64,000 bases of DNA from a virus. Lineage: Duplodnaviria > Caudoviricetes. A program made the translations under genes and the position numbers. The notes under the pieces were generated by a model. It had not been told where the DNA came from and searched no databases. It saw nothing but the letters and a program-made list of their open reading frames with translations. The stretch is taken from the IMG/VR virus record IMGVR_UViG_3300028887_000090, positions 1 to 64,000 of that record; one strand, 5' to 3'. Positions 6,581 through 56,088 of this stretch are shown one piece after another (the stretch's first letter is position 1; each line of letters starts with the position of its first letter).

Positions 6581-7369
6581 ATGGCAAAGAAAGAAAAAAT
6601 CGCTGAGGTGCTTCAGCAGGAATTTGACAAAGGACATTACGAGGCAGTGACTCCCGCGTTTTCGCAGGTGCCGGAGGTGATTTGTATCAAGACGGAGCAG
6701 GGTGCTTATTCCTTCCCCAACGATAAGGATATGTGGAAAAGTATTGATAGCCGTCAGAAGGCTTTGGATCGCGTGATTAGCAACCGCCAGAACTATGGCG
6801 ATGACCGTGGACGCTGTGCAGTGTTTAAGGATAACAAAACCGCTCTCGACCTGGGACTGTTGAAGGGCCGTCCTGACTATCTTCGCTGTGCCTACCGCTC
6901 GTGGCTCATGGCCCAGAATGCGCCTGAGAAGTTGCGCCGGTATGTGTATCACAATCTGATAGTGATGTGCAACCGCTATCATGGCGATGCTGAGAAGTTC
7001 TATCTTCAGGACATCAGCGACTATACTTTCCAGGTGCTGCCACCGGCATGGCGCAAGTGTATGGATGAAGAATGCCCAGAGTTGAAGGATGTGATTTTAG
7101 GCGACGTGCTGGAGCAGTTGACTCCGAGCTTCAAGGAAGGGCAGACCATTGCCAGAAAAATGATTGGAGGCCGGTTCGTGAAGTGTAAGATAGTGGGTGT
7201 GGAATATAACTATCAATTCTCTATCCGGCGTGGCGAGCTGGGTAGTAATCCCTTCGTGATGGAGTATCGGGTGCAGAACGTGGATGATAACAGCCGCTAT
7301 CCGCATACATACAGTGTGCGCCGTGATAATGCCTATCCCGCGTTTCATGCAGAGAAGAAGGATAAATAA
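6581..7369 (+). CDS. hypothetical protein
   Basis: 262-aa ORF. Confidence 0.75.
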   Translation: MAKKEKIAEVLQQEFDKGHYEAVTPAFSQVPEVICIKTEQGAYSFPNDKDMWKSIDSRQKALDRVISNRQNYGDDRGRCAVFKDNKTALDLGLLKGRPDYLRCAYRSWLMAQNAPEKLRRYVYHNLIVMCNRYHGDAEKFYLQDISDYTFQVLPPAWRKCMDEECPELKDVILGDVLEQLTPSFKEGQTIARKMIGGRFVKCKIVGVEYNYQFSIRRGELGSNPFVMEYRVQNVDDNSRYPHTYSVRRDNAYPAFHAEKKDK

Positions 7370-14699: not shown

Positions 14700-15404
14700 A
14701 TGCAGAAAGAATCACCGATTTTAGAACAGCAGCGTCCTGACCGTCAGTATTACTCCCGTCAGAACCGTATTAAGCGCGAACTCGACCATGCCGTAACCTT
14801 GCTGAAGGCCGCGTTTGCCTCGTGGGTCATCCTTACCATCGTCTGTGCCTTCATCGGCTGTGCCGGTAAACAGGTGGTCGTCGATCAGACCGAGAGCCAC
14901 CATAGCAAGGCTGACTCTCTATCCGCGTCGTTACAGGTTGCCGTCAGTCAGCAGCAGACCCGTATCGACTCCCTTTTCCATCTGGTACTCCAACAGGAAC
15001 TAAGCCATCAGACGGCTAACGAACAGCAGACCGAGCAGATTCAGGAAACCGTCACGTCGTGGATCGACTCGCTGGGTCGTAAGGTGACGCAGGAGGCCCG
15101 TACCATCAACCGTAAGACCGACCGCCAGGAGGAACTTCGTCAGCAGCGTATCATTCAGGAACAGGAGCAGCGCATTCTGACATGCCAGGAGCGTATCGAT
15201 TCGCTCTATGCACTGTTGCTGGAAAAGACCGCCAAAGAGGAAAGCGACACCACCTCGTACCACAAAGAGGTAATCCGTCCGGCTCATACGCCATCGCTCT
15301 ACCAGAGCTTCCATGACTGGCTCACATCGCTCATCAATGTGGTAGTCCTCGCCGTCATCGTCGGCTTCGTTGTGCGCTGGAAGAAAAAGAAGTGGAACTT
15401 ATAG
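14700..15404 (+). CDS. putative lipoprotein with C-terminal TM helix (unimolecular spanin-like)
   Basis: hydrophobic stretch ending FIGC, coiled-coil middle, C-terminal TM followed by KKKK. Confidence 0.55.
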   Translation: MQKESPILEQQRPDRQYYSRQNRIKRELDHAVTLLKAAFASWVILTIVCAFIGCAGKQVVVDQTESHHSKADSLSASLQVAVSQQQTRIDSLFHLVLQQELSHQTANEQQTEQIQETVTSWIDSLGRKVTQEARTINRKTDRQEELRQQRIIQEQEQRILTCQERIDSLYALLLEKTAKEESDTTSYHKEVIRPAHTPSLYQSFHDWLTSLINVVVLAVIVGFVVRWKKKKWNL

Positions 15405-16397
15405 GCCGAAGTCCTGAAGGTACTGTCGGCATCTGAATCCCTTTCGTGGTTCAAACTCCTCAAACGAATGGGCGACGAAGTGCGCCTTTTTGTTCACCCA
15501 TCCCGCCAGATCTTTCTGCCATTGCGGAATGATGTGGCGGGGATTGTTTGGGTCACGGTAGGGCTGGGCATGTGGATAGACGTAACGGCCTTCGTGTGCA
15601 GCCCGTGTCTCTTGTGTACGGTGCCACCAGTGTACGATGCGCTCGTAGCATTCCCTGAAGTCTGAGGTGAGCATAGTATAAAGGAAATACTGACCCGTGA
15701 AACCGTATTTGTTTATCATTTCCATCGCCCGCTCACATTCTTCTATCTGGGCGTGGGTGTCACAACCGAAACGGATGCGGTTGTTATCGAGCCACTTCAC
15801 CTTGGCCAGCAGCTGTGCTATCTCATCCGTTACCAGTCGTGCATCGAGTGCCTGATTGAAGTCCACACGGTAGCCTCGTTCGATGATCTTGCGTAGCTGC
15901 TGCAAGCAGTAGTCGCCAGCAGCCAGGATATTGTTATCCATCAGCACCAGTTTACGACGGCCTTCAATGGCTATTTCGTCCACATCCATGTATGGGCGTA
16001 TCAGTCCCTCTTTCTTTGGTACCACACACCAACGGCATTTGTTGGGACAGCCGCGAGTCAGAAAACCGTAGGCCGTATCTTTCGGTACGTTTGGATAGAT
16101 GTCGTAGAGTGGTTGCAGCCGGTCTATCTCATCGGGTAGGGTAGAGTGTATGTCGTAGCCGGTGCCTCCCTTGATGATTTTGTCGGCCTGATAGATAAAG
16201 GTATCGTCGGGTGTAAAGTTGAACACCTTCGACATGTAGATAATATCATAGTGTTTCATGGGTGTGGCCCACTCGATTTGCCCCCCCCTATTATGCCAGT
16301 ATCTCGCAATCTTTCCGAGTGCGAGGTTAGGGTAAATCGTGGCTCCCCATTTCTTCTTTTTGGCGTGTCCGTCCACGTCCACAAGTCCTATTTGCAT
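15399..16397 (-). CDS. radical SAM protein with in-frame G8 tract
   Basis: TRGCPNKCRWC; C8 on + strand at 16281-16288. Confidence 0.9.
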   Translation of the reverse strand: MQIGLVDVDGHAKKKKWGATIYPNLALGKIARYWHNRGGQIEWATPMKHYDIIYMSKVFNFTPDDTFIYQADKIIKGGTGYDIHSTLPDEIDRLQPLYDIYPNVPKDTAYGFLTRGCPNKCRWCVVPKKEGLIRPYMDVDEIAIEGRRKLVLMDNNILAAGDYCLQQLRKIIERGYRVDFNQALDARLVTDEIAQLLAKVKWLDNNRIRFGCDTHAQIEECERAMEMINKYGFTGQYFLYTMLTSDFRECYERIVHWWHRTQETRAAHEGRYVYPHAQPYRDPNNPRHIIPQWQKDLAGWVNKKAHFVAHSFEEFEPRKGFRCRQYLQDFGL

Positions 16398-17433: not shown

Positions 17434-18031
17434 TCAGTTAAACCATTTAATAACTGTGTCCCCTTTGTAACCTTTTTCCCAGACAAACCAGGCGTAGGCG
17501 ACAGCGGAGCCTTTAACGTTGGCGAAGTCACCATTGGGAGCACAGAGCAGACGTGAGCTGCTGACCCATACTCGTGCCGGTGGCTGTGTCTGGAAGAGGT
17601 GTTTGCGGGCCTTACCTTCGAGGAAGGTGAGTTTGAGGAACATCGCCACCTTGTGACCAGTGGGGATAATGGCCAAGGCTTTCTCCACAAACGCCTGAGC
17701 AAAGGCGTAGGGTGGGTTTGTGATGATATCGCCCGACCATTCCACGTTGTCGATAGCCAGAAAGTCTGCCACTTCGCCATAGCCGCGATCGATGATATCC
17801 CTGGAAATGACGGAATACCCCCCCCCTCGTAAGTACTTCGGCAATATGCCCTTCACCACATGCCGGTTCGAGTATCGGCCCATCGAAGTGCTCCAGCTTC
17901 AGTAGCCACTCCGTAGCCTTCGGCTCTGTGGCATAGTAATCCTGTGCCACTCGATCACCATCGGCATGGTTGCTGGCACTGATGCCTTTGAATACGGAGG
18001 CGCTGCCTCCAGTCCAATCTTTATTCTTCAT
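17434..18031 (-). pseudogene. NPPY-type DNA amino-methyltransferase frameshifted at a G9 tract (intact with G8)
   Basis: DYYAT, ILEPACGEGH in one frame and DIITNPPY in another; junction is C9 at 17818-17826. Confidence 0.85.
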
Positions 18032-20105: not shown

Positions 20106-20600
20106 TTATTCGTATAGTCTTGGGTCAACTTCTAATTTCTTCAGGAGAATTTTTGTAGTCTCTATCAGATCCTTATTATCGCCAAAGATACGCTCCCATG
20201 CAGGATTGGGTTTATAGCGTGGAATGCGCATTAGTTGTAATGGCTCCCATTCCGGAATGAAACGCAGTTGGCGAAGCATCGCTTTCAGGTGACGTGGACG
20301 GTCGATGATAAAGAGCTGTTCGTGCTGAAAGCCTCCCTTATAAACCACCGTGACGTGTAGAGCAATATCGTAGCCATGAGTGACGTACCAGAGCATCTTC
20401 TTACGCTCCTTGCACTGCTTCGCCTTCAGGCGTTTCGTCTCTTCGACTAATGCTGATATGTCGATGTTGCCATAGGCCGTGATGCAGACGCGCTGCACTT
20501 TCGGCTGTGGTTCCTCCGGTGGGATGTGCGTAGTCAGGCAGCCTTCGCATTCGCCTACCTTTGCTCCTGTCTCTTTATTATATATAGTAATGTGGCTCAT
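20106..20600 (-). CDS. hypothetical protein
   Basis: ORF 20106..20621; ATG at 20600. Confidence 0.65.
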   Translation of the reverse strand: MSHITIYNKETGAKVGECEGCLTTHIPPEEPQPKVQRVCITAYGNIDISALVEETKRLKAKQCKERKKMLWYVTHGYDIALHVTVVYKGGFQHEQLFIIDRPRHLKAMLRQLRFIPEWEPLQLMRIPRYKPNPAWERIFGDNKDLIETTKILLKKLEVDPRLYE

Positions 20601-20601
20601 A

Positions 20602-21389
20602 TTAATAAATATCGAAATCAAATGTCAGTTGTCGGCTTGCTTCTTTTATCCGGTTTTGGGCGTAGTCGAACCAATAAGGGTCGCGCTCTATACCGATGTA
20701 TTTGCGATGCTCGATGATAGCAGCTACGCAGGTGGTGCCTGATCCCATCGTATTGTCGAGAATTACCCCCCCATATTGCTATATGAGCGAATGAGATAGC
20801 GCATTAGATCCACGGGCTTTTGTGTGGGATGCTTCTGGCCCTCGCTGCAATGGATGGCTGGGATGGTGATAATGCTACGTGGGTGCTTCTTATCGGTATA
20901 GGTGGGATTGATGCGCTTCATGTTGCCATAACACTGGTTGGTCTCTACCTCGGTGGCATGACCTTGCGAGTGGTTTGGCTCGCGCCCATTCAATGCCTCC
21001 ATCTGAGGATGGTACACCGGCAGCTGCTTATAGAACACACAGATATCCTCGTGGTAGCGCAATGGCATGCGGTTGGCATTCAGGAATCCCGTAGCACGGC
21101 ATTTGTCCCATACCAGGTTATAGCGCCATAGCTTCTGATTGCTCATCATCAGTTGGGCCGTAAACATACCAGAGGCAAAGAGTACGATGGCACCGTGTGG
21201 TTTGATGATACGCTCGTAATGCGTCCACAGCGGAGCAAAGGGAATTACCACGTCCCATTGAGCGTGTTTATTTCCTTTGTTCAATACGCCGTAAGGCAGA
21301 TCGCAGATAATGGCATCGATGCTCTTATCAGCTATCCCGTCCATCACCTCCAGACAGTCGCCCTGGTATATGTTGTTTGGCTCAATCAT
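20602..21389 (-). pseudogene. beta-class N4/N6 DNA methyltransferase frameshifted at a G7 tract (intact with G8)
   Basis: GDCLE, DLPY, HPTQKP, then stop; adding one G at C7 20766-20772 continues VILDNTMGSGTTCVAA...YIGIERD to stop at 20602. Confidence 0.9.
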
Positions 21390-21393
21390 TGAT

Positions 21394-21957
21394 TTATGAT
21401 TTAATGATTTCATCAATGGGTTTGTCGCTCTTTACGCCGACGATGATCTCAGCAATACATCGCCTTTTGCCTTCATCGTCTGTAATATGTTTGGTGGATA
21501 TGATTTCGGTGTCGATGATATCCATTAACAAATTATACTTAGCGGTATGTTCGATGTCTTTATATCTTCGTGACCGTTCCTCGTTACTACACTCTATTAC
21601 AAAGTCTCTCTCGTATTTGATAAAACCAGTAATTGTTTCCATTCTAACGGAGGCTGTGCGTATTTTTAATTCTCTGTTATCTCTGAATGGATCGTTGATG
21701 TCGGCCAACTGTTCCGTCAGTTTTGCATTCTGTTCTACCAGCACTTTGCCACCCTCCAGGAGAGATTCGTTTTCGCGCTTCATCTTATTATAGAGGTGAC
21801 GGAAAACGACGTTGCTCACGATGATAAGAAGGTAGAGCAAATCGATAATGGCATGAAACATATCGCCACGAATGAAAAACGCTACCGTAAAGAATGCGAG
21901 TCCACCAAACAGCAGTATGTTGATGGCCCAACTAAGTATATTGCTAAGTTTCTTCAT
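21394..21957 (-). CDS. membrane protein
   Basis: two N-terminal hydrophobic helices. Confidence 0.7.
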   Translation of the reverse strand: MKKLSNILSWAINILLFGGLAFFTVAFFIRGDMFHAIIDLLYLLIIVSNVVFRHLYNKMKRENESLLEGGKVLVEQNAKLTEQLADINDPFRDNRELKIRTASVRMETITGFIKYERDFVIECSNEERSRRYKDIEHTAKYNLLMDIIDTEIISTKHITDDEGKRRCIAEIIVGVKSDKPIDEIIKS

Positions 21958-31106: not shown

Positions 31107-34100
31107 ATGATCTACGACCCACTGATTGATGAATTGGCAGCGCTGCCTTTGCAGATGCTTGTGACACCCGCCGACCAACAGACCGAGGAAGGTCAGTTGG
31201 CCTGTTGGTGTCCGTTCTGTAAGACGGCCCCAGGTAGTCAGTCGTCTGGTCAGCAGCAGAAGTCCACACCCCACTTCATTATCTACCAGCGCAAGCGTGG
31301 CGGTCTCTATGGCAAGCCCGTAGAACACTGGTTCTGTACCAAGACCAAGCGTGGTGGCTATGGTGCCATCGAACTCTATGCCGCCATGAAGGGTTATGGC
31401 TATTGGTGGCAGAAGGATTCCCACTCGCCTCAGACGTTTATCTGTGTGGGTGAGGATCTGCGACACACCTGTATGGAACTCGCCGAGCATGCGGGCCATA
31501 CCCGTGAGGAACTGGAGGAGAAATGGCCCTCGCTCTGTTATAGGGACTTCCGACAGGTGGCCGTCCGTCCGCAGGAGGTTCTTACCTTTGAACCTAAGAC
31601 TGACTTCACGCCACAAGACCTGGCAGCCCTCGGTTGTACGACCTGGCTCAGTCGCGACGGCATCGAACAGTATGGTTTCGACACCCAGAATAAAGAATCA
31701 GCCTGGCATTTCCATCCGTCGGACATTCAGAAGGACTTCAAGGTGTGGGCCGTCGGTAAGGTGACGCTTCCTGCCGTTTCGCGTCAGGGTGAACCGCAAT
31801 CGGAGGTACTGATTAGTACCCCATGGAACCCTATCTTTATCGCCCTGTGTGATGACGAAAAGGAGGATTGCGGTAGCATCTTCCGACCCGCCATCGAAGA
31901 GCAGCCGCCGATGGTATTCAGTACCACCGAGGAACATACGCCCGCGAAGGTCAGCCGTTGGTTGGCTGGCGATAAGGTTTTCCTTCGTGCCGTAGAACTC
32001 CGCAATAGTGACCGTACCGGTGTGGCTGCCGCTATCAAGGAACTGGAAGAGGAAGAGCTCGAAGATGGCAATATCAGTAAGACCACGAAGGAATGGCAGC
32101 CCACCGTGAACAGCAAGGGTAATACCGTACTGGAACAGGTGGATGTGCCTATCGAGACCAAAGACATGAAGGCCCGTGCCGTCATCTATTGCACCACCGC
32201 TCAGGATGCTATTGCCACCTATTACCATCTGAAGGCTTTGCGCTGCACCTATCCGAAGGCATTCGGCAATCGTTGGTACCATGTGTGTTTCCCCTACGGA
32301 AACGTCCCCTTCAGCAGCGTACACTATAATAAGATGCACCGCTTTGCCGAGAGCATCTACACCCTCTACCCGTCGGCCACCAAGACCACCCTGAAGGCCC
32401 GCGACATCAGCTGTCGCTATCGTGACATCCTGCGTGCCGAACTGCCGGAGGGTATCGGCGACCGCATCCATCTGTATTTTCCCCGATTGTTCTGTCATCC
32501 CGTACAGACGGTGAGAGATTTCTTCCTGGCATACCGTATGTTGCCGCGAGAAGCCTTCCAGAACGATGAGGATATCAACCGCCTCTTCAGCAGCTGTATC
32601 ACGTCGGCATTATCCAGCGACCCCTTCGAGCGAAAAGAGAAAAGGGATAAGAACGGCATGGTGAAAGAGGTGTACTATACCATCAATCCCGCGACGCTCT
32701 GGGAGTTTATGGCATCGGCTGGCTATGCCCGTGACGTGCGCCCCGACGAAGCGGATAAGATAGGCCGCTTTGTTCATATTGACGGGCCGTTTGCCGACGA
32801 ACTGGAACCATCCTCTATGGTGCAGGCCACCATCGAACAGTTGAAGGCGTATGCCCGACAGTTGAACGATGCCCGTCCTGGCATGCCCGACGAATACGAG
32901 TTGATGGTGCAGGCCGTGCTCCGTGCCAATAAGGAGATCAACGAAAAAACCATTGCATCCCTGCCCAGCGTGAAGTTGAACTATAACGAAGGCTACGGGC
33001 GACACATTGAGCATTTCTTCTATGAGAATGGTGCCCTGCGTATTACCGACAATGAGATTACGCTGTTGCCCTATGACCAGATAGACTTCAATGTGGAGCG
33101 TGCCGAGAAGTTGCATTGGAACATCCAGCCATTGAAGGAACTGCCCTTCTCTATCTCTGAGAATCCGGAGTACCAGGAGCGTTTGGCCGCCATCGCCCGT
33201 AAGCAGAACGAAAAGGATGACCTGGGCAAACCGCTTTATACGCTGGTGCAGTTGGAGCAGGAAAAGAACGAACTGGCATTGTGGGCGCAGAGCCACCGGT
33301 GGATTGTGGACTGGAAAGGTAAGCACGAAGATGAAATGTGGCCCACCTTGCGCGTCATCCGTGGTTTTGCCAACGAGGAATGGGAACAGGAACAGCAGCT
33401 GCTTCACGATGGTAAGCAATTCAGCAGCGAGGAACAGATGGAACTCGACTGTCGCTTTGCCAACCTGATTTTTTGTCTCGGTCGTATGCTCTGGCGATAT
33501 AGGGATAGCAAATCGAACTGCATCAGTTATCTCATCGAGAATGTGGTATCAGCAGCAAACCGTGCAGAAGGTGGCTCAGGAAAGAGTACCTTCGTGCGTA
33601 TCTTTGCCGGTTGTGCGGCCCACATCCTGAACATCAACGGACGCGACCTGATTTCGAATAAGGAGTTTTCGGCCAACCTCGCCGAGTACCAGCACCATAA
33701 GCACCGCGTGGTGCATTGGGAGGATGTGGATGCCTCGCTCGATTTCGGTAAGCTCTACAACCTGACTACAGGTGATTTTAGCGTGCGCTATATGTATAAG
33801 GATCGTATCACCATCCCACTGAGCGAAGGCCCTGGGCATGTGGTTACTTCCAACTATCCGCTACACGACCTCGACGACTCTACCATGCGCCGTGTCTGTA
33901 TGGGAGGTTTTTCGCACCGTTTCTGTGGTCAGAACATTATGAAGAATAAGGCAGCCCGCTATATCAGCGATATCATGCCCGACTTCAACGCTGTTAGTCC
34001 TGATAAGCTGTCGGCCACCTCGCGTAATCAGATAGCAATGATCTGTGCGCTGGCCGTGCAGTTTGTGATGCGCTATGACGAAAAAGTGGATGCCCAGAAG

Positions 34101-34790
34101 AAATACATGGAGCAGCGTACCCTCACGCAGTCGTTGGGCGAAGCCTTCCTGCGTTTTGCCCGTGTGTTCTTTGCCCAGGAGCATGTCTATGGTGTCCCCG
34201 TGGATCTCGACTCGATGTTGGAGGAATACAAGAGCGACTTTGCCGAAGCCTCGAAAAACAAGACCGACTCATTCTCGCCGAAAGCCTTCAAGCGTCGTAT
34301 TCTGGACTACTGCGAGACAGCCGGTATTGTGATGAACCCGCCACAGCTCTTCAGACGTGCTGACGGTAAGGTGCTGAAGAAGGCCGAGCAGACCAACTAC
34401 TTCGCACACCAGGCATGGTGTACGCGCCGTTACTTTGAGGGCCGTGAGTGGGAGGATGACGCTACCATCGCACCCAAGCAGATCCGTGAACTTGTGCGTA
34501 CCGAGCATGCTGTGTATTTCTATCGTCAGGGCAAAGACAGCATCCCCGCCAACAATGACGAACTGATGAAGGTATATACCTCGTTTCTGAATGCCCCTGA
34601 CCCCGCACCTATCTGTGATGACAATGGCAATGAGGTGAGACTGACTGAGGAGGAGCAGAACCGTTGGCGCTCATACCTCGATGCCAAGCAGCGCAAGCGC
34701 ACCGCTACCAACCCCGCACCCCAAGCGACCGGAGGTGTTGAGTCTGCTGCTGTTCCACAGCAGCCACAGGAAGAAGATTTACCATTTTAA
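31107..34790 (+). CDS. primase-helicase-like replication protein
   Basis: N-terminal CPFC..H..C zinc motif, EGGSGKST P-loop, VHWED, VTSNY; 1227 aa. Confidence 0.75.
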   Translation: MIYDPLIDELAALPLQMLVTPADQQTEEGQLACWCPFCKTAPGSQSSGQQQKSTPHFIIYQRKRGGLYGKPVEHWFCTKTKRGGYGAIELYAAMKGYGYWWQKDSHSPQTFICVGEDLRHTCMELAEHAGHTREELEEKWPSLCYRDFRQVAVRPQEVLTFEPKTDFTPQDLAALGCTTWLSRDGIEQYGFDTQNKESAWHFHPSDIQKDFKVWAVGKVTLPAVSRQGEPQSEVLISTPWNPIFIALCDDEKEDCGSIFRPAIEEQPPMVFSTTEEHTPAKVSRWLAGDKVFLRAVELRNSDRTGVAAAIKELEEEELEDGNISKTTKEWQPTVNSKGNTVLEQVDVPIETKDMKARAVIYCTTAQDAIATYYHLKALRCTYPKAFGNRWYHVCFPYGNVPFSSVHYNKMHRFAESIYTLYPSATKTTLKARDISCRYRDILRAELPEGIGDRIHLYFPRLFCHPVQTVRDFFLAYRMLPREAFQNDEDINRLFSSCITSALSSDPFERKEKRDKNGMVKEVYYTINPATLWEFMASAGYARDVRPDEADKIGRFVHIDGPFADELEPSSMVQATIEQLKAYARQLNDARPGMPDEYELMVQAVLRANKEINEKTIASLPSVKLNYNEGYGRHIEHFFYENGALRITDNEITLLPYDQIDFNVERAEKLHWNIQPLKELPFSISENPEYQERLAAIARKQNEKDDLGKPLYTLVQLEQEKNELALWAQSHRWIVDWKGKHEDEMWPTLRVIRGFANEEWEQEQQLLHDGKQFSSEEQMELDCRFANLIFCLGRMLWRYRDSKSNCISYLIENVVSAANRAEGGSGKSTFVRIFAGCAAHILNINGRDLISNKEFSANLAEYQHHKHRVVHWEDVDASLDFGKLYNLTTGDFSVRYMYKDRITIPLSEGPGHVVTSNYPLHDLDDSTMRRVCMGGFSHRFCGQNIMKNKAARYISDIMPDFNAVSPDKLSATSRNQIAMICALAVQFVMRYDEKVDAQKKYMEQRTLTQSLGEAFLRFARVFFAQEHVYGVPVDLDSMLEEYKSDFAEASKNKTDSFSPKAFKRRILDYCETAGIVMNPPQLFRRADGKVLKKAEQTNYFAHQAWCTRRYFEGREWEDDATIAPKQIRELVRTEHAVYFYRQGKDSIPANNDELMKVYTSFLNAPDPAPICDDNGNEVRLTEEEQNRWRSYLDAKQRKRTATNPAPQATGGVESAAVPQQPQEEDLPF

Positions 34791-34803
34791 AAGATAAACA
34801 ATT

Positions 34804-35421
34804 ATGAGTAAGTACAGATTTTCTATTGACGCGGGCATTTTCACTGGAGCCCGTTACATTGAGCCGGAGTTTCCCACCGCCGACGGTAAAGGTAAGGTGA
34901 AGATTCCTGGTATTTTCATTCCCACTGGTATCAACGGCATCGACATCAAGGCCGACACCCGCGATGAGGGCAAGCGTAATCCGAGCGGTTTCCGTGCCTT
35001 CCTCACCTTCGTACATCGTGGACTGAGTGGTAAGTATATCCAGACCATCCGCGACCGTCTGACCCGTGAGGGCGAACAGATTACCGCCTATAACGTGCCT
35101 GCCTATTCGGTATGCTACACGTTGCCCGAAGAGAAGCGTGCCAAGATCCGTGCCGTCCTCGCCAAACGTGTGATTGCCGAGCATCCGGAATTGGCCAACC
35201 AGACCGACACGCAGGGCACCGACCTGGCAAAGGCTATCTCTACGCTGATGCCCTTCCAGATGGGTGACTCGTATCTCATCGAGGAACAGAACGCCCAGCA
35301 GCAGCCACGTAACAGCAGCGCACCCGTCGCTCAGGGTGTGACCGGCTACTCTACCCAGGCACCAACAGACTATGCAGACCCCTTCGGAGGCGAAGATGCA
35401 CCCGACGATCTGCCATTCTAA
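34804..35421 (+). CDS. SSB-like protein
   Basis: Q/P-rich linker and acidic DDLPF C-terminus; sits in replication module. Confidence 0.55.
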   Translation: MSKYRFSIDAGIFTGARYIEPEFPTADGKGKVKIPGIFIPTGINGIDIKADTRDEGKRNPSGFRAFLTFVHRGLSGKYIQTIRDRLTREGEQITAYNVPAYSVCYTLPEEKRAKIRAVLAKRVIAEHPELANQTDTQGTDLAKAISTLMPFQMGDSYLIEEQNAQQQPRNSSAPVAQGVTGYSTQAPTDYADPFGGEDAPDDLPF

Positions 35422-35441
35422 CGAATTAAACGAATTGAGTT

Positions 35442-36590
35442 ATGAGGTTTAATGTTTCCGCAAAAGAATTGCTCCGTGTGCTGAAGGCCACTGGAGCCGT
35501 GATGCAGAAGAAGTGTTCGCTGCCGATATTGCTCGACCACCTCTTTACCGAGCGTGATGGTAAATTCTTTATCACTGGTTCATCACAGGAAAACTCATTG
35601 TGCATGCCTATCAATCTGACGCTCGACAGCGAGACGGACTTTGAGAAGTTCTGCCTCCAGTGTAATGATATCATCGGACTGTTGGGCTCACTGCCTGAGC
35701 AGCCTGTGGAGATCGATGTGGATATGCAGGCATTGGTGGCGAAGTTCAAGTATGCCACTGGTATGGTGAGCGTCCCCGTAGAGCGTGCTGATGAATATCC
35801 CGCTGTGGCAAAGATGACCACCCCGACCACCAGTTTCGAGATAGAGACAAAAATTCTGTTCCCCGCGATGAAGGCTGCCACCTCGTGCTGTACGCCCGAC
35901 GATCCCTTGCGTCCCGTATTCAGTGCCGTATGTCTCGACGTGCAGGATGAGGGTGTTATCTTCGTGGCTACCAATGGTCATAAACTCTATAAGTATGCCT
36001 ACCAGCATGGCCTTCCGTTCCTGACGGGTGAGAAGCGTGTCATCCTGATACACAACTCGCTCATCGGTACCCTCTCCGCACCGTTCGCCGGTCTGGAAAC
36101 CGTTACTGTGACCCACGATGGTAAGCACATGTGTATCGAGTCTGGTGACATCGCCTTTACCATCCGCGATATCGAAGGTAAATATCCCAACTACAATTCA
36201 GTTATCCCGTCGGAATGCCCCTATCATGCTATCCTGCCCGTTTCGAACCTGATAGGTGCTGCCCGTCGTGTGTCGCTGATGGCCTCGGAGTCGTCGAATA
36301 TGGTACGACTGACTAAGGAAGGCATGTTCCTGAATCTCTCTGCCGAGGATAACGATTTTTCTAAGGCTGCCAACGAGAACCTGGTACTCGCCGAGGTGGA
36401 GGATGCCATGAATATCCCCGACGGCTTCAGTATCGGTTGTAAGTGTGCGCATATCATCGAATTGCTGGGTAACATCAGTACCGACAATGTGCGCCTGGAA
36501 CTCACTTCTAACTCGAAGCCCATCCTGTTCAAAGAGGATGCCGACAATTCCGTACTTACTGAGCTCACCATGCCCATGCAGTTGAATTAG
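35442..36590 (+). CDS. dnaN: DNA polymerase III beta sliding clamp
   Basis: LPIL, RPVFSAV, VATNGHKL, IEGKYPNYNSVIP, LTMPMQL. Confidence 0.93.
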   Translation: MRFNVSAKELLRVLKATGAVMQKKCSLPILLDHLFTERDGKFFITGSSQENSLCMPINLTLDSETDFEKFCLQCNDIIGLLGSLPEQPVEIDVDMQALVAKFKYATGMVSVPVERADEYPAVAKMTTPTTSFEIETKILFPAMKAATSCCTPDDPLRPVFSAVCLDVQDEGVIFVATNGHKLYKYAYQHGLPFLTGEKRVILIHNSLIGTLSAPFAGLETVTVTHDGKHMCIESGDIAFTIRDIEGKYPNYNSVIPSECPYHAILPVSNLIGAARRVSLMASESSNMVRLTKEGMFLNLSAEDNDFSKAANENLVLAEVEDAMNIPDGFSIGCKCAHIIELLGNISTDNVRLELTSNSKPILFKEDADNSVLTELTMPMQLN

Positions 36591-36591
36591 T

Positions 36592-36909
36592 ATGAGGAAA
36601 GAATACTATTGCTTCTACCAGATGGGGCATACCTTCTACTACATCTTTGACGATGGTACGGTACGCTCGACACGTAACGTACTGTCGCCCATCGATACGT
36701 GGAAGGTCATCGCCACCTATAACGGCAAGGGCTATCGTCGCATTCGCATTCAGGGTAAGACGTTCAAGGTGCATCGTCTCGTGGCCACGGCATTTATTCC
36801 AAACCCCGATAATCTGCCTTACGTCCTACATAAGGATGGCAACCGCGAGAACAATGATTTTAGAAATCTCGAATGGAGCGCCGTACAGTCAAATCACAAA
36901 GACCAGTAA
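36592..36909 (+). CDS. HNH endonuclease
   Basis: VHRLVATAFIPNP...VLHKDGNRENNDFRNLEW. Confidence 0.9.
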   Translation: MRKEYYCFYQMGHTFYYIFDDGTVRSTRNVLSPIDTWKVIATYNGKGYRRIRIQGKTFKVHRLVATAFIPNPDNLPYVLHKDGNRENNDFRNLEWSAVQSNHKDQ

Positions 36910-37039
36910 TATTGGGCCGTTATTCCGACTCGCAGAATGGCATTGTGGTATCTCCTGATGGTATCGCATTGTGTTTGGCAGGGGGGGTAATGGCCATGAT
37001 ACGGACAAACCAAAGGTATTGATAGAATATGAACTCTAA
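36873..37039 (+). pseudogene. TRD-like cassette A, out of frame (G7; G8 restores)
   Basis: MERR...SQNGIVVSPDGIALCLAG|GGNGHDTDKPKVLIEYEL*; tract 36981-36987. Confidence 0.8.
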
Positions 37040-37349
37040 TCGTATATTGCAGCGACACAACAGATGCGGAGGATTATGCCATAACTCTCCGCGTCTGCAT
37101 GCTGTGATAGTCCGTTGCTGTGTCTATCTGGGTGATTGTGGCGGTTGGTGGAACTCGATACATCCCTCCCGTCTGGGTATGATGATACTGAGGGTGATGA
37201 GCATCGATCCTTATGATATCTATAATAAGGTATATGATGGCTACACCACTCATAGCCGTTCGTATATCCGTGCTGATATCCGTTTCCGTTTGTCGTTGCT
37301 CCAGCAGCTGCTATTCCTTTTGTTGGTCATTCTCTTGCTATGCCTATGA
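37029..37349 (+). CDS. atypical ORF inside the cassette array (no G tract, no IEY tail)
   Basis: starts in the tail of cassette A; stop overlaps ATG of cassette B. Confidence 0.4.
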   Translation: MNSNRILQRHNRCGGLCHNSPRLHAVIVRCCVYLGDCGGWWNSIHPSRLGMMILRVMSIDPYDIYNKVYDGYTTHSRSYIRADIRFRLSLLQQLLFLLLVILLLCL

Positions 37350-37489
37350 AGGGTGAGGTGGTGATGGTGCTCGGATCGTTGCAGAACCATGCAGCGATAG
37401 TGGATGTACGAGGGGGGGGCAAAGCGTGTCCCTGCATCGGTACTACAGACTTTGGACTACCTAAAATAATCGTAGAATATGAATTGTAA
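37346..37489 (+). CDS. TRD-like cassette B, in frame (G8)
   Basis: MKGEVVMVLGSLQNHAAIVDVRGGGKACPCIGTTDFGLPKIIVEYEL*; tract 37412-37419. Confidence 0.8.
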   Translation: MKGEVVMVLGSLQNHAAIVDVRGGGKACPCIGTTDFGLPKIIVEYEL

Positions 37490-37630
37490 TGGTATAATAC
37501 GGGTAGGAAACCTATATTACGACTCGTTTCGTAATGGTTTCGATGGCAATGTTCAGGGCATTTCCGGCATTGCCCAGACCGTGTTAGCCGCAAATGGGGG
37601 GGGTATATCTTGATAGAGTATGAGATTTAA
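37479..37630 (+). pseudogene. TRD-like cassette C, out of frame (G8; G9 restores)
   Basis: MNCNGIIRVGNLYYDSFRNGFDGNVQGISGIAQTVLAANGGG|YILIEYEI*; tract 37596-37603. Confidence 0.8.
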
Positions 37631-37807
37631 GACGACTAATGTGGGCGTTACAAAGCCGATTAGGGGGGGCAAATCCGACCTGTCAATGTTACGCAAGATC
37701 TTTGCGCTGCCACTCTCACTACCCGCTACGATGCTGTTGGGCCTACTAATATTATCACTTTGGCCCATTACCCGATGACAGTTGTATTGATAGAGCATGA
37801 TTTGTAA
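37620..37807 (+). pseudogene. TRD-like cassette D, out of frame (G7; G8 restores)
   Basis: MRFK...IRGG|QIRPVNVTQDLCAATLTTRYDAVGPTNIITLAHYPMTVVLIEHDL*; tract 37663-37669. Confidence 0.8.
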
Positions 37808-37979
37808 GGCTATTGGTTGGACGCGAAGCGGTTCCGGACGTGGTGATGTCATCAGTTACCATCTGAAGGATATCTGCAACTGCATTACTTCCTTTGTAGG
37901 GGGGGGTATTGGCAAGGATTCAGTAACAGGCATGTATAACACAACTCCGTATATTTTGATTGAGTATGAACTATTATAA
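37797..37979 (+). CDS. TRD-like cassette E, in frame (G8)
   Basis: MICKAIGWTR...KDICNCITSFVGGG...NTTPYILIEYELL*; tract 37899-37906. Confidence 0.8.
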   Translation: MICKAIGWTRSGSGRGDVISYHLKDICNCITSFVGGGIGKDSVTGMYNTTPYILIEYELL

Positions 37980-38156
37980 TTCGCGTCTGTGCGAAATGAT
38001 TAGGGGGGGCAATGGCGACCACAATATCATGGCGAAATGCTTGACACCTATAACCAGAACGCCCATCGTAAGGTAGCGATAACCGTTTTGGCTGGCATCA
38101 GTTCGCGAAACCACTATTTTGTTTGTGAAGAAAGAACCAATAAATTCAGAAAGTAT
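37966..38156 (+). pseudogene. TRD-like cassette F, out of frame (G7); with G8 it reads in frame into the MTase
   Basis: MNYYNSRLCEMIRGG|QWRPQYHGEMLDTYNQNAHRKVAITVLAGISSRNHYFVCEE; tract 38003-38009. Confidence 0.75.
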
Positions 38157-39698
38157 ATGATCGCAAAGATTTATCCCGACGGACACCCTGATCTTCAGGG
38201 TAAAAAGGATCCGAAGCATCCCGTGCGATACTTCGACATCCGAAAACTTACCCCCCCCGAATGCTATACACTCATGGGGGTACCGCAGCAGCGCATAGCG
38301 CAGCTGATGGCAACCGAAAAACGCCCATATACGGCATTTATCGGTGTAGAGGAGGAACTAAGGCTCTTTGGTCTGGAAGAGTCAGCCTCGATGAAAGATG
38401 TGCTGGATGCCTACAAGGAGGCGATGCAGAGTTGTGATGAGTTTGACCAGGAAACACAGAAGAAAATCGATGAAGGTTTTCTCAGTCCTGACAGCAGACC
38501 CACAACCGATGAAGATGGTGAGGAAATCATCTATCCCTACGACGATGAAGAGAGCTACCAACGTTACCTGGAGCAGTTGAAGGAGGATTTGGAAGGTAAC
38601 AAACTGGTACGTCAGAATTACGATGAAAGATACGCAAAGATCCGTGCCGCACCTACTGAGGAACGTTTTGGCGATGTGCAGATAATCTCAAATAGTTCGC
38701 ACTATAAACTCGCAGGAAACTCGATTGTCTGCGATGTGCTGATGTATATCTATGAAGAATTTCTCTATCCCACCGGTCGCCGTATTCCTACCGAGCAGCA
38801 GGATTTATTCGCGCTGCCGCAATTCCGTTTAGAGCGCGACTGGAAGAAGAAACCATTGAAACTTGTTACGCTATGCTCTGGCTATGACTCGCAGGCCATT
38901 GCCTTCGACATGCTGAAAGAGCGTTATCCTGATTTTGATTACGAGCTGACGGCATGGGCTGAGTTTGACCCTGAGAGCAAGCGCCCATTGGAAGAGCAAC
39001 CCGCAGTGGTGGCCCATAATCTGCTATTCCCTCAGTGGGCCGACCGTAATCGTGGTGATATGACCAAGTGTGATTGGAGTGACCTGAAGGATGCAGAGGT
39101 GGATTTTCTTACTTACTCTACGCCGTGTCAGTCGATCTCACAGGCAGGTAAGCGTGAGGGCATTAAGAAGGGATCTGAAACCCGTTCGGCTGTGCTCTGG
39201 TACACCGAGGAAGCCGTGAAGGTGATGAAACCGAAGATCCTGATGCAGGAGAATGTGCGTGCGCTGATAAACAGCGTGAACATGCCCGACTTCAAGGAGT
39301 GGTGTCAGCTGCTGGAGAAATATGGTTACGTGAACTTCCTTGCGCCCTCATTCCCGACATTGTGGGGAGAGACCAAACGCGACAAAAAAACCATTCCTGG
39401 CATTCTCAATTCGAAGCACTATGGCGTGCCTCAGAACCGCGAGCGCGTCTATATGATTTCTATCCGTCAGGATGTGTTGGGTGATACGCAGTATGAGTTC
39501 CCGCGTCCTTTCCCCCTGGATAAGTGTATTGCCGACATTCTGGAGTCAGATGTCGATGAGCGTTTCTTCCTGAAGCCCGACTCAGTGATTAAGTTCCTGA
39601 CTGTGAATGAGAGTGACCAGAAGGCTCAGATCTTCTATGTAGTGACTGACCATAAGTTGACGGATGAAGAAATCGCCCAGGCTCGTAGTCGTAAGTAG
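38157..39698 (+). CDS. circularly permuted DNA (cytosine-5)-methyltransferase
   Basis: order IX (IRKLTPPECYTLMG), X (YKLAGNSIV), I (TLCSGYDS), IV (STPCQSISQAG), VI (MQENV), VIII (GVPQNRERVY); ORF open from 38037, probable ATG 38157. Confidence 0.92.
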   Translation: MIAKIYPDGHPDLQGKKDPKHPVRYFDIRKLTPPECYTLMGVPQQRIAQLMATEKRPYTAFIGVEEELRLFGLEESASMKDVLDAYKEAMQSCDEFDQETQKKIDEGFLSPDSRPTTDEDGEEIIYPYDDEESYQRYLEQLKEDLEGNKLVRQNYDERYAKIRAAPTEERFGDVQIISNSSHYKLAGNSIVCDVLMYIYEEFLYPTGRRIPTEQQDLFALPQFRLERDWKKKPLKLVTLCSGYDSQAIAFDMLKERYPDFDYELTAWAEFDPESKRPLEEQPAVVAHNLLFPQWADRNRGDMTKCDWSDLKDAEVDFLTYSTPCQSISQAGKREGIKKGSETRSAVLWYTEEAVKVMKPKILMQENVRALINSVNMPDFKEWCQLLEKYGYVNFLAPSFPTLWGETKRDKKTIPGILNSKHYGVPQNRERVYMISIRQDVLGDTQYEFPRPFPLDKCIADILESDVDERFFLKPDSVIKFLTVNESDQKAQIFYVVTDHKLTDEEIAQARSRK

Positions 39699-39880
39699 TG
39701 CCGTGTTGCGGGGTGTTCGTACTGAGCATGCCCGTGCCGTGCGCCGCATTTACGGAGATAGGGGGGGGGCATTGCCACTTCTCTGACCGTAATTTTCTTC
39801 CGGCTACTGATGGGTGTAGTAATACGATAACTGGAATATTGAAGGATAATTTGTTATTGATTGAGTATGATGATCATTAA
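39664..39880 (+). pseudogene. TRD-like cassette G, out of frame (G9; G8 restores)
   Basis: MKKSPR...VRTEHARAVRRIYGDRGG|HCHFSDRNFLPATDGCSNTITGILKDNLLLIEYDDH*; tract 39761-39769. Confidence 0.8.
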
Positions 39881-40049
39881 AGAGACTGAGCCAACTGCCG
39901 ATATGAAGCCTGTTCGAATATCGGCAAGCCGTGGTAGGGGGGGGCAAAACGCTACCCACCAAGTCATCGAATTAGGGTCATGGCAAGCAACGAACACAAT
40001 TACCTCAGTACAGAAGGATAATATTGTATGGATAGAGCGAGATTTATAA
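39867..40049 (+). CDS. TRD-like cassette H, in frame (G8)
   Basis: ...SASRGRGGQNATHQVIELG...TNTITSVQKDNIVWIERDL*; tract 39937-39944. Confidence 0.8.
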   Translation: MMIIKETEPTADMKPVRISASRGRGGQNATHQVIELGSWQATNTITSVQKDNIVWIERDL

Positions 40050-40177
40050 GGAATGTGGGGGGGGTATATTCGCAATGTACTCCCGACTTCAACCGAGGTT
40101 GGCTTTGGGGCCTCTCTCGATGTATCAAAGCCTCGATGAATGATGCCGCAATATTGATAGAGTATGACTATGAATAG
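40028..40177 (+). CDS. TRD-like cassette I, in frame (G8)
   Basis: MDRARFIRNVGGVYSQCTPDFNRGWLWGLSRCIKASMNDAAILIEYDYE*; tract 40057-40064. Confidence 0.8.
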   Translation: MDRARFIRNVGGVYSQCTPDFNRGWLWGLSRCIKASMNDAAILIEYDYE

Positions 40178-40327
40178 GAAATATAAGATAGGTGTTCATA
40201 TCGTAGGCCATCGTTTAGAGTGGCACGGCGAGGGGGGGCAGACTCGACTATGTGGAAAGATATCTGTCCTTGCATTCGCATGAATGATTATAAATGTCCG
40301 ATGAATATATTGATTGAGTATGAGTAA
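40164..40327 (+). pseudogene. TRD-like cassette J, out of frame (G7; G8 restores)
   Basis: MTMNRKYKIGVHIVGHRLEWHGEGG|ADSTMWKDICPCIRMNDYKCPMNILIEYE*; tract 40232-40238. Confidence 0.8.
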
Positions 40328-40574
40328 GGTACGCCATTTCAAACCTCGGTGTCCCTTCCTTCAGATTGCTACGAGGGGGGGGCAAATCGTGTTACAAGTT
40401 CGTCAGGCAACCGAGCAAGGCTATATCGAATGCGTCAGTGGTGGCGTGTTCGATATGGCTTACCCTACGTCTCAGCTTCGTCGCGCCCGTGTCAAAGACG
40501 ATGGCCGTGTGGCATCGGCATTGATGGCAGGAGAAACCTCACAATGTGTATTTCTGGAGTATGACCTCGATTAA
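40320..40574 (+). CDS. TRD-like cassette K, in frame (G8)
   Basis: ...TRGGQIVLQVRQATEQGYIECVSGGVFDMAYPTSQLRRARV...VFLEYDLD*; tract 40375-40382. Confidence 0.85.
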   Translation: MSKVRHFKPRCPFLQIATRGGQIVLQVRQATEQGYIECVSGGVFDMAYPTSQLRRARVKDDGRVASALMAGETSQCVFLEYDLD

Positions 40575-40761
40575 ACTATCCAAGACTACCTCCGCACCTC
40601 CAAGGGCTTATGGGGGGGGGTATTTGTTGCCTGTCAACACCGCAGCAGGAGGAATCTGTTGCACACTCAATACCAGATACGACGGCATGCAGTTGCCGGA
40701 GGACATCTTATCACTCGCACACTATCCTAAGACGGTTGTGCTCATCGAATACAATCTATAA
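40561..40761 (+). CDS. TRD-like cassette L, in frame (G9)
   Basis: ...YGGGYLLPVNTAAGGICCTLNTRYDG...LAHYPKTVVLIEYNL*; tract 40612-40620. Confidence 0.8.
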   Translation: MTSIKLSKTTSAPPRAYGGGYLLPVNTAAGGICCTLNTRYDGMQLPEDILSLAHYPKTVVLIEYNL

Positions 40762-40764
40762 TTT

Positions 40765-40798
40765 GTCACATGGTTACGTTGTTTTACCCCTAACTTTG
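40765..40798 (+). promoter_or_regulatory. putative late promoter
   Basis: GTCAC-N21-TAACTTTG. Confidence 0.6.
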
Positions 40799-40829
40799 TG
40801 GCGTATTAATATTTAAAAAGGTATATAGT

Positions 40830-41492
40830 ATGGAAACTTTCTCAATTATGGAACCGTGCTGCATAGGGCATCAACTGCCGCAGCTGCTGAAAAAGTACCC
40901 GCTTGCTACGTGGCAGTCGAATGGTGATGTGACCTTCGATAAACTGATGAAAGCCATCAGTTGTCTGGCAGGCAACTCTCTGACCGTGAAGATCGTCATC
41001 CCGACGATAGATATTCCGATGCTAAGATTGTTGCTCTGGTATCGCCAGCGCGAGTGGCTGAAAGAGGTGGCCATCCTGACCAAAGACGACCAGACGGCCT
41101 TGATGCGCTCACAGTTGGGCATGGACTTTCCGCTGACTGCGAGACACCATGACTCGGTGGTGGAGTCGCTGCTGGTGATAGAGGGCGAGAAAGCCACCGT
41201 CATCGTGCAGGGTGCCTTGCTGAGTGTGGTCACACCAGGACAGTATCATTATACCACCTATGTAGGCACCGACCAGGAGCGCATCGACATGCTGGTATCG
41301 TCGGCATGGTCGCTGTTCCGTCTGGCAGGTCGAAAAGGTGGAAAGAAGGGCAAGGAAGCCGCTGAGGAAACGGATGAGAAGCCGTCGGAGGCCGCTGCCG
41401 AACAGCCCGAAGATAATAACGAAAAACCCGTAGAGCATGAAGATACGACTGAAGAACCCGCTGAAAGCGTGGAGGGAACACAGGAAGCGTAA
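40830..41492 (+). CDS. hypothetical protein with acidic tail
   Basis: 220-aa ORF. Confidence 0.75.
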   Translation: METFSIMEPCCIGHQLPQLLKKYPLATWQSNGDVTFDKLMKAISCLAGNSLTVKIVIPTIDIPMLRLLLWYRQREWLKEVAILTKDDQTALMRSQLGMDFPLTARHHDSVVESLLVIEGEKATVIVQGALLSVVTPGQYHYTTYVGTDQERIDMLVSSAWSLFRLAGRKGGKKGKEAAEETDEKPSEAAAEQPEDNNEKPVEHEDTTEEPAESVEGTQEA

Positions 41493-42009
41493 GGCTGACC
41501 TGAAGGATCTGCATCAGACGGCATCGGTTTTCGGTTCACTGGAAACGCTGATGACGAAGGGCCTGTTGGCATGGAACCAGCAGGAGCGCCGTCTGTACGT
41601 GGCCGAGCCGTTGGCCATTGTCATGCTGGGACGTGGTGCCGACCACTGGCAACGCTTCCTGAATAACACCTACCTCTATTTGATGAATAAGCTGATGGCT
41701 GAAGCATGGGATAAACATGTGCGTGACGAACAGCGCAAGGCCGTGAACGAGCGTGTGGCGCAGGGCGTGAAGGTAAACCCTGGCGAACTGGATCGCATTC
41801 GTCGCGCCGTGCGTGAACAGATAGAGTCTGACGCTGTGCAGCCGCCGAAGATTGAACCCTTCGAGTTTTTCGTCATCAACGACCATGCCGAGGGTGACGC
41901 GAAGGCTGCCATTACCTACGTGGGTGAATATAATCCCGACACCGAAAACTTTGTCATGGCTGCCTGGGATGACGTGAAGCAAGCCATCGAGGACGTAAAA
42001 CTGAAATAA
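41437..42009 (+). CDS. hypothetical protein
   Basis: 190-aa ORF. Confidence 0.75.
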   Translation: MKIRLKNPLKAWREHRKRKADLKDLHQTASVFGSLETLMTKGLLAWNQQERRLYVAEPLAIVMLGRGADHWQRFLNNTYLYLMNKLMAEAWDKHVRDEQRKAVNERVAQGVKVNPGELDRIRRAVREQIESDAVQPPKIEPFEFFVINDHAEGDAKAAITYVGEYNPDTENFVMAAWDDVKQAIEDVKLK

Positions 42010-55848: not shown

Positions 55849-56088
55849 ATAGGTCTAATGTTGGAGTGAAACAGGGGGGGGGTAAAATCGCCCTTCAGAG
55901 GAAACGGTCTGAGTCGTACCGCCATGTTGTTTAAGATAGCGACGCTGGCAGGTCATAAACTGACTATTCCAGAAATGAATAAGTTTAAAGAGGTGAATCC
56001 TCGTAGTCTTGAACAAGTATATAATGAAGTGGTTCGCGTAGGCGATGCCGGTAATGCCCGATTCGCTTTGCAACTGATATTAAAATAA
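55845..56088 (+). pseudogene. hypothetical gene of about 80 aa, frameshifted at G9 (intact with G8)
   Basis: ATG overlaps upstream stop; removing one G at 55874-55882 opens the frame to TAA at 56088, 4 nt before the next ATG. Confidence 0.7.

Follow-up and report, generated by a model that had tools for sequence, protein, structure and literature searches.

A probable phase-variable, multispecific C5 cytosine methyltransferase served by switchable target recognition mini-genes in a phage

Introduction

Can a single phage DNA methyltransferase (MTase) be served by a set of target recognition domains (TRDs) that are encoded as separate genes, each carrying a switch of its own? The question is raised by a 3.9-kb array in a 64,000-nucleotide stretch of phage DNA (Duplodnaviria; Caudoviricetes), here called the window, which comprises positions 1 to 64,000 of the IMG/VR record IMGVR_UViG_3300028887_000090. 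The whole record has 101,851 bp and is judged 96% complete, and the phage host is probably a member of Prevotella/Bacteroidales from gut or rumen. In the array, twelve short open reading frames (mini-ORFs, or cassettes A to L), each with one G7-G9 run, flank one C5 MTase core. The evidence set out below points to a modular, phase-variable, multispecific C5 MTase, in which TRD mini-genes that are turned on or off serve one permuted core, and we regard this reading as probable.

Homopolymer tracts and frame states

A homopolymer scan of the window finds 18 G or C runs of at least 7 nucleotides (nt), 13 of which lie within 3.9 kb (36981-40620), and this confirms the count given in an earlier note that was made from the sequence alone. 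The 13 runs comprise 12 G runs and one C8 run (Table 1). At a G content of 26%, about 0.23 G runs of this length would be expected in 3.9 kb, as compared with the 12 observed (Poisson p ~1e-17). Frame states were obtained by three-frame translation and by a tract-centred parser with a strict regular expression for the tail. They reproduce exactly the layout proposed in the earlier note, with twelve mini-ORFs of one G7-G9 run each, six of them ON and six off by one base. Six cassettes (B, E, H, I, K and L) can be read as they stand, five (A, C, D, F and J) are one G short, and cassette G has one G too many. The tract length that gives the ON state is G8, the exceptions being C and L (G9), likewise as proposed, and the frame-corrected products have 49-84 amino acids (aa). 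Cassette F with a G8 tract enters the MTase ORF and becomes the N-terminal TRD of the core, in keeping with the claim that correction of this tract restores the MTase frame.

A circularly permuted methyltransferase core

The gene at the centre of the array matches the DNA methylase family (PF00145) with 133.6 bits (cut-off 22; E 1.4e-38), and its product has sequence matches in the PDB to M.MpeI and M.HhaI and a Foldseek fold match with probability 1.00. The motifs run in the order IX (RKLTPPE), X (GNSIV), I (LCSGYDS, a variant form), IV (PCQ), VI (ENV) and VIII (QNRER), and the PF00145 profile positions 41-210 map to core residues 333-519. Motifs IV (with the nucleophilic Cys), VI, VIII, X and IX are all readable in the core and are invariant in 17 relatives. 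The motif order implies that the core is circularly permuted, with both termini within the variable region (the TRD slot). Judged by its sequence, the core is thus a circularly permuted C5 cytosine DNA methyltransferase, and the placing of such an enzyme at the centre of the array in the earlier note is upheld by both the PF00145 match and the motif order.

The C tract within motif IX is a candidate master switch. It ranges from C7 to C10 among relatives, and a poly-C tract, in motif IX or at 'GVPPP', puts 11 of 26 related cores out of frame.

Between motifs IX and X (38290-38690; core residues ~85-215), the core contains a strongly acidic and poorly conserved insert of ~130 aa. Its length varies among relatives, it is absent in a clade of more distant loci (L040-L051), and it forms long helices in the model.

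The mini-ORF peptides as target recognition domains

Cassette K was searched by phmmer against 1.8 billion representative proteins, giving 379 matches, and its residues 25-78 align within longer DNA_methylase (Pfam) proteins. In a canonical 339-aa enzyme (P0021), the match falls between motifs VIII and IX. For seven of the 11 types of free cassette (A, C, E, G, H, I and K), homologues stand in tandem as TRDs of PF00145 proteins, either single chains or beta subunits (P0019, P0073, P0065, P0023). For example, the single-chain PF00145 enzyme P0073 contains C-, K-, G- and I-like modules in tandem, and in P0019 motifs IX and X come after A-, G- and K-like modules, the P0019 gene lying next to a separate gene for motifs I-VIII. 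Type A matches one TRD of the multi-TRD protein P0019, and type C matches internal TRD positions in the PF00145 proteins P0073, P0102 and P0052. Matches at TRD positions were also found for types G (P0014, P0019, P0023, P0073), H (P0064, P0084, P0091) and I (P0055, P0065, P0073, P0100).

Other homologues are fused to permuted cores. A word-index search of cassette L against longer proteins gave no match, and a later profile search with the D/L family gave P0152, a permuted PF00145 protein of 603 aa, in which an L-type module including the tail stands N-terminally, directly before motif IX. Fusions to the core are also seen for type E (in frame, loci L040-L051) and type F (L012-L015), and L022 has one further TRD type joined on before motif IX. 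The suggestion in the earlier note that the peptides resemble MTase variable regions is borne out by the alignment between motifs VIII and IX and by the tandem and fused homologues, and the search of the repaired peptides against C5 MTase variable regions that it advised gave matches for most types. On this comparative evidence, the mini-ORF peptides are true homologues of C5 MTase TRDs.

When folded alone with 22 relatives, cassette K is predicted to form a small beta domain (predicted local distance difference test, pLDDT, 86.9; predicted template modelling score, pTM, 0.76). In this fold, the R-G-G encoded by the tract makes up the turn that links the leader strand to the first TRD strand, a site where a G tract can be tolerated. 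A Foldseek search with the K model gave no match, suggesting that no TRD of the K type has been solved. A search with the K-family profile against the PDB gave spurious matches only, and the ESM Atlas gave no usable match for L or B.

Conservation, selection and tract-length variation

The same layout is present in four IMG/VR contigs (cores 68-72% identical), in ~28 of 45 metagenome contigs, in contigs of metagenome-assembled genomes labelled Prevotellaceae or Bacteroidales, and in the isolate assembly Prevotella sp. MGM1. The MGM1 locus (L062, NZ_BEWV01000204.1) is a 90-kb contig whose core lacks a TRD and which has at least 8 cassettes with G tracts, among them an F type that stands alone. 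A blastn search of the region against a phage database gave no match. The best phage protein match, Dulem virus 40, carries an ordinary split MTase without G tracts and was rejected.

In the comparison of orthologues, synonymous differences are saturated (pS 0.59-0.75), and non-synonymous differences are 0.13-0.30. The ratio of non-synonymous to synonymous divergence (dN/dS), taken from summed pairwise Nei-Gojobori counts over non-independent pairs, is 0.07-0.19 in the tract-corrected frame for ten cassette families, including 0.15 for the B type (10 orthologues, 3 ON). No value was obtained for the A type (20 orthologues, 4 ON), because its synonymous sites are too saturated. The J type has 17 orthologues, of which 4 are ON, including the copy in L012. 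By this measure, the cassettes encode real proteins under purifying selection.

Tract lengths were compared over 238 cassettes parsed from 33 loci, giving G6 in 10 cassettes, G7 in 118, G8 in 76, G9 in 28, G10 in 5 and G12 in 1. The frame is open in 76 cassettes (32%), 124 need +1 and 38 need -1. As to the ON and OFF states in related phages, which the earlier note had recommended comparing, tract lengths differ and every cassette family has both ON and OFF members; the tract at the fused F position varies among relatives too. Over the 3.9-kb array, 61 substitutions (1.6%) separate locus L012 from the window, but as many as 9 of the 12 G tracts differ in length, and the sole indel of the array outside the tracts is a 13th, tract-less cassette after L. 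Loci L002 and L003 are 3% diverged and differ in 8 tracts, including that of the core (C8 vs C9), and orthologous tracts within one lineage range from G6 to G12. The array thus has two features of contingency loci, namely a homopolymer of at least 7 nt in coding sequence that sets the frame, and a tract that is kept but polymorphic in length among close relatives. The tracts also run against codon usage, as GGG makes up 6% of Gly codons and GGGGGG encodes only 1 of 54 Gly-Gly pairs elsewhere, and in the H cassette of L004 the usual tract is lost and another tract is present at a new position. Features of this kind mark selected contingency loci, with selection on the tracts acting at the nucleotide level. 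An origin as a poly-G artefact of two-colour Illumina sequencing was rejected, since this artefact consists of long runs at read ends and not of codon-positioned G7-G9 runs conserved across projects.

The 13th cassette of L012 (7626-7741) encodes an A-like TRD ('...LTHTAGHGNCPKV..') without a homopolymer, and would be constitutive. A similar tract-less cassette occurs in L005, at ~6640-6811.

The tracts might instead act at the level of RNA or the ribosome, through -1 frameshifting (or RNA polymerase slippage) at G7. Here G7 followed by C or T would be a slippery site (G GGG GGN) at which a constant share of ribosomes shifts, the 'OFF' cassettes would be made at a low constitutive level, and the tracts would tune dosage and not be heritable switches. 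Such an account fits the skew between the modal G7 needing +1 (110 of 238 cassettes) and the 18 G9 tracts needing -1, which is the one expected of -1 rescue, and it fits the conserved tract flanks (aGGGGGGGcaa / tGGGGGGGGtat). However, a designed frameshift site should have a fixed length, whereas between close relatives an orthologous tract varies among G7, G8, G9 and greater lengths, and the in-frame G8 is common. In addition, no downstream stimulatory structure and no Rfam match were found over 36000-41500. The length polymorphism argues that switching at the DNA level is at least also at work. The two mechanisms are not exclusive, and we consider it unlikely that the tracts serve mainly for slippage.

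Junctions and coupled translation

The sequence TTGATAGARTATGA or a close variant is present at every internal cassette boundary. In the coding frame, this junction encodes L-I-E-Y-E/D, with a stop 1-4 codons further on, and in the other two frames TGA or TAG occurs within ~20 nt. The ATG of the next cassette is built from the Tyr and Glu/Asp codons of the tail. Of 210 cassettes, 192 have TAT as the Tyr codon of the tail, as compared with 57% TAT in the long ORFs of the phage genome-wide, and terminal cassettes have TAC or CAC in the tail, so that no ATG is formed. With three-frame stops beside the next ATG, a ribosome in any frame would end near the next start in most cassettes, and we read the junction as a device for termination-reinitiation coupling. 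Bacteroidales lack Shine-Dalgarno-led initiation, and termination-reinitiation would suit such a host. No Bacteroidetes-type -7 promoter motif was found on the + strand from 33606 to 40791, which lends weak support to one long transcript (an operon).

Between A and B, ~300 nt (37040-37340) contain no TRD-like frame and form an insert, and a small ORF (37213-37356) ends in a junction-like 'YAYEG' followed by a stop, providing B with an ATG (37346). The B leader of L002 is instead long, with a 'C.VCCDTIAA' segment that recurs in other leaders.

The junctions could also be viewed as recombination sites, with the array as a silent library comparable to pilS/pilE or an hsdS shufflon: only the TRD fused to the core (the F position) would be used, and recombination at the 14-nt junctions would swap cassettes in. 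Conserved junction repeats do flank each cassette, cassette order does vary (C and E are upstream of the core in the window and downstream in L002), and the fused position holds different TRD types in different phages. But each cassette has retained an ATG, frame, stop and tract of its own, all cassettes are in direct orientation, so that recombination would delete them instead of shuffling them, no recombinase lies beside the array, and cores without a fused TRD exist. That only the terminal cassette lacks a junction ATG points to translation and not to recombination. The silent-library account therefore appears quite improbable.

Core enzymes without a fused domain

Whether the TRDs act in cis or in trans is addressed by comparison of the cores. 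In loci L018, L019, L021 and L023, an intact core begins with the Met of 'MIAKIYP', directly behind a stop, and has no covalent TRD. This start forms an ATGA overlap with the preceding cassette in L018, and in L021 the F-type TRD is a stand-alone cassette with a tail of its own. The window core would have its own TRD in the chain only if the F tract were G8, as in L012-L015, and in the window it is G7. The clade L040-L051, with cores 52-57% identical, contains free TRD ORFs with the same junction and at most one G tract, suggesting that TRD genes stood free before the switches arose and are found more widely than these. The existence of TRD-less cores, together with the occurrence of the same TRD type in fused and stand-alone form, is comparative evidence in favour of action in trans. 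The most economical reading is that the free TRDs would assemble with the small domain of the core.

By a further account, the free TRDs would serve outside methylation, as shields or decoys that by themselves bind specific DNA sequences or host restriction or MTase proteins, and the core would use its fused TRD only. This is compatible with the predicted independent folding of K and with the purely comparative grounds for docking of the free TRDs, but it leaves TRD-less cores useless, and it does not account for the tail strand, which precedes motif IX in fused enzymes and is kept by all cassettes, or for the cassettes being always clustered to either side of the core, next to its open TRD slot. 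We consider a role of this kind very unlikely. Finally, it is scarcely credible that the array is functionless debris of a single-chain multispecific MTase broken by homopolymer frameshifts or by sequencing or assembly errors, for although consensus assemblies show 11 of 26 related cores and half of the cassettes with a broken frame, there is purifying selection across saturated synonymous divergence, the frame of OFF cassettes downstream of the tract remains open as far as the conserved tail, the tracts persist in spite of codon bias, and the architecture recurs in >30 independent assemblies from several projects.

Several points weigh against the reading of the array as a switchable, trans-acting set of TRDs. 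Searches gave neither a fused nor a tandem homologue for types B and J, and a Pfam scan of six mini-ORFs recognised no family. In the model of the fused F-MTase of L012, the core was modelled, and the TRD and N-terminus have low confidence (pLDDT 25-46). It is comparison, and no other line of evidence, that suggests docking of the 49-84 aa TRDs on the core. The length evidence comes from assembled consensus sequences of related, non-identical strains and as such shows fast evolution of tract length, and some consensus tract calls could be assembly errors; reversible switching of tracts at the population level is what we infer from it. Moreover, the commonest state, a G7 one short of ON (110 of 238), also mimics a -1 ribosomal frameshift site.

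Neighbouring genes and other tracts in the window

The positions of the array components and of other genes with tracts are given in Table 1.

Table 1. Positions of the array, its tracts, and neighbouring or tract-bearing genes in the window
Feature	Position	Strand	Tract	Remarks
Weak Radical_SAM ORF	15399-16397	-	G8 16281-16288, in frame	E 0.001, below cut-off
NPPY MTase-like gene	17434-18031	-	G9 on coding strand, 17818-17826	Two overlapping ORFs joined by the tract
N6_N4 DNA methylase	20106-21416	-	G7 on coding strand, 20766-20772	PF01555, E 8e-14
HNH_3 endonuclease gene	36592..36909	+		PF13392; directly upstream of cassette A, overlapping its start
Cassette A	36873..37039	+	G7 36981-36987	OFF (ON = G8); start within 3' end of HNH gene
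Example junction, TTGATAGARTATGA	37016..37039	+		Tail L-I-E-Y-E/D, three-frame stops, next ATG
Cassette B	37340..37489	+	G8 37412-37419	ON
Cassette C	37479..37630	+	G8 37596-37603	OFF (ON = G9)
Cassette D	37620..37807	+	G7 37663-37669	OFF (ON = G8); paralogue of L
Cassette E	37797..37979	+	G8 37899-37906	ON
Cassette F	37966..38156	+	G7 38003-38009	OFF; no stop of its own
Annotated MTase ORF	38037-39698	+		PF00145
Permuted C5 MTase core	38157..39698	+		From Met of 'MIAKIYP'
C8 tract of core	38251..38258	+	C8	Within motif IX (LTPPE), in frame; candidate master switch
Cassette G	39664..39880	+	G9 39761-39769	OFF (ON = G8); start overlaps 3' end of core gene
Cassette H	39867..40049	+	G8 39937-39944	ON
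Cassette I	40028..40177	+	G8 40057-40064	ON
Cassette J	40164..40327	+	G7 40232-40238	OFF (ON = G8)
Cassette K	40320..40574	+	G8 40375-40382	ON; complete TRD of 'RQAT..GY...RRxRV' type
Cassette L	40561..40761	+	G9 40612-40620	ON; last cassette, tail TAC, no ATG created

The HNH_3 endonuclease gene stands before the A type in ~17 related loci and is missing in others (L016, L018, L021, L025), and it may be a homing-type insertion and not part of the system. In L062, it lies at ~4100. Other G/C tracts of the window lie in DNA-modification genes too, so that the switchable modification genes of this phage seem to extend beyond the array. The N6_N4 DNA methylase is truncated at its G7 tract, with the GGVILDNTMGSGTT motif carrying on in another frame; from its sequence it looks phase-variable and currently OFF, and its homologues in L018, L024 and L025 contain the same kind of tract. 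The NPPY gene has EPACGEGH before its G9 tract and NPPY after it and looks like an adenine MTase that is currently frame-shifted, and a Pfam search with both halves gave no match. In the weak Radical_SAM ORF, the G8 tract encodes 'RGGQ' near the N-terminus, in a tract context like that of the TRD cassettes, and the homologues in L016 and L024 also have G tracts. In addition, a short ORF at 55849-55920 has an ATG, a leader ('MNRSNVGVKQGGG...') similar to that of cassette D, and then a G9 tract (55874), with no LIEY tail after it.

Relation to known systems

The earlier note knew of no described system with this layout, and a full-text literature search likewise found no description of it. Multispecific, split and permuted MTases and contingency loci are each known separately, and it is their combination that appears to be new. 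Multispecific C5 MTases are known from Bacillus phages, including M.SPRI, M.Phi3TI and M.Rho11sI. These enzymes, and the single-chain multi-TRD enzymes P0073, P0023 and P0064, are like the array in that one core serves several TRDs of ~40-60 aa, and seven cassette types are homologous to the tandem TRDs in the P0073, P0023 and P0064 chains. The Bacillus phage enzymes are, moreover, phage-borne and presumably anti-restriction. By contrast, the array has a separate ORF, start, stop and homopolymer switch for each TRD, its core is permuted, and some relatives have a TRD-less core. Because the TRDs of the window are parted by three-frame stops and have an ATG each, they do not form the tandem within one chain that is seen in SPR and phi3T.

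Natural permuted C5 MTases include M.BssHII, M.Alw26I, M2.Eco31I, M.Esp3I and M2.BsaI (PMC5944983). The core resembles the M.BssHII type in having motifs IX-X before I-VIII and the permutation site in the variable region, and its F-ON form (TRD-IX-X-I...VIII) corresponds to 'Type H' in PMC5944983. The known permuted enzymes differ in being single chains with one TRD and no flanking TRD genes, and PMC5944983 reports no phase variation for them.

According to PMC5944983 and PMC3404938, M.AquI is naturally split (alpha/beta), and M.BspRI, M.SssI and M.HhaI bisected in the variable region show efficient fragment complementation. Taken together, the permuted, split and fragment-complemented enzymes make non-covalent assembly around the TRD feasible. 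In the split enzymes, separate polypeptides cut in the variable region reconstitute activity, which is the point of likeness, but their TRD stays joined to motifs IX-X, whereas here the TRD alone is the proposed free subunit, with up to 12 alternatives. The array is also not of the M.AquI type (alpha with motifs I-VIII; beta with TRD, IX and X), as motifs IX-X-I-VIII are in one chain. An M.AquI-like split multi-TRD pair is present in L009, consisting of a 271-aa protein with motifs I-VIII and P0019.

Phasevarions that are switched by simple sequence repeats (SSRs) involve Type III mod and Type I hsdS/hsdM genes, in which the whole MTase is switched or hsdS halves are recombined. The likeness to phasevarions and phage contingency loci lies in homopolymer slippage in coding sequence, ON/OFF states and the bet-hedging hypothesis, and the likeness to Type I systems in a separate specificity subunit (HsdS). 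The difference from phasevarions is that twelve switches and a master switch would act here on the specificity modules of one phage C5 enzyme. SSR switching in phages as such is already known from a 2025 preprint, which describes contingency loci in T-even and other phages and cites poly-G tracts in Fletchervirus receptor-binding proteins and in the BPP-1 methylase gene (PMC12633550).

Proposed mechanism and significance

In the proposed mechanism, the N- and C-termini of the permuted core would be open at the variable region, where the TRD normally sits. The 12 short genes, with one TRD each, would be read as a translationally coupled chain of products with a shared beta-strand tail, and one-base slippage in a G tract would determine whether that TRD is made. 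The core would be toggled separately by its own poly-C switch, and cassette F would alternate between a covalently fused TRD and none. TRDs in the ON state would join non-covalently to the motif-IX small domain of the core, contributing one recognition sequence apiece, and the phage population would carry mixed methylation patterns, with an upper bound of 2^12 if the poly-C switch of the core is not counted. Mixed patterns may be a hedge, since methylation would protect against classical restriction enzymes and would be harmful in hosts with methyl-dependent restriction.

A broader proposal combines free TRD mini-proteins of 50-85 aa, acting as exchangeable C5 subunits, with a separate hypermutable switch for each of ~12 such proteins, for the core and for at least two MTases of the adenine/N4 type, forming a combinatorial 'epigenetic phasome'. 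On present evidence we would lean, though only slightly, towards accepting it. If it is true, a phage population could have up to thousands of methylation states, as bet-hedging against both restriction and methyl-dependent restriction. On the practical side, gene callers and Pfam miss all cassette genes, and consensus assemblies fix an arbitrary ON/OFF state. Prevotella sp. MGM1 is a possible laboratory model for the system.

If the TRDs act in trans, this would be the first C5 MTase with separable specificity subunits, and it would offer a natural toolkit of ~12 or more small modules for redirecting a single catalytic core, with a use in programmable m5C writing. We know of no structure in which several TRDs share the active site of a multispecific MTase, and action in trans would give a handle on how this sharing is achieved. 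The array would also be, to our knowledge, the densest cluster of anti-restriction contingency loci in any virus, and phage hedging between restriction enzymes and methyl-dependent nucleases would become directly testable.

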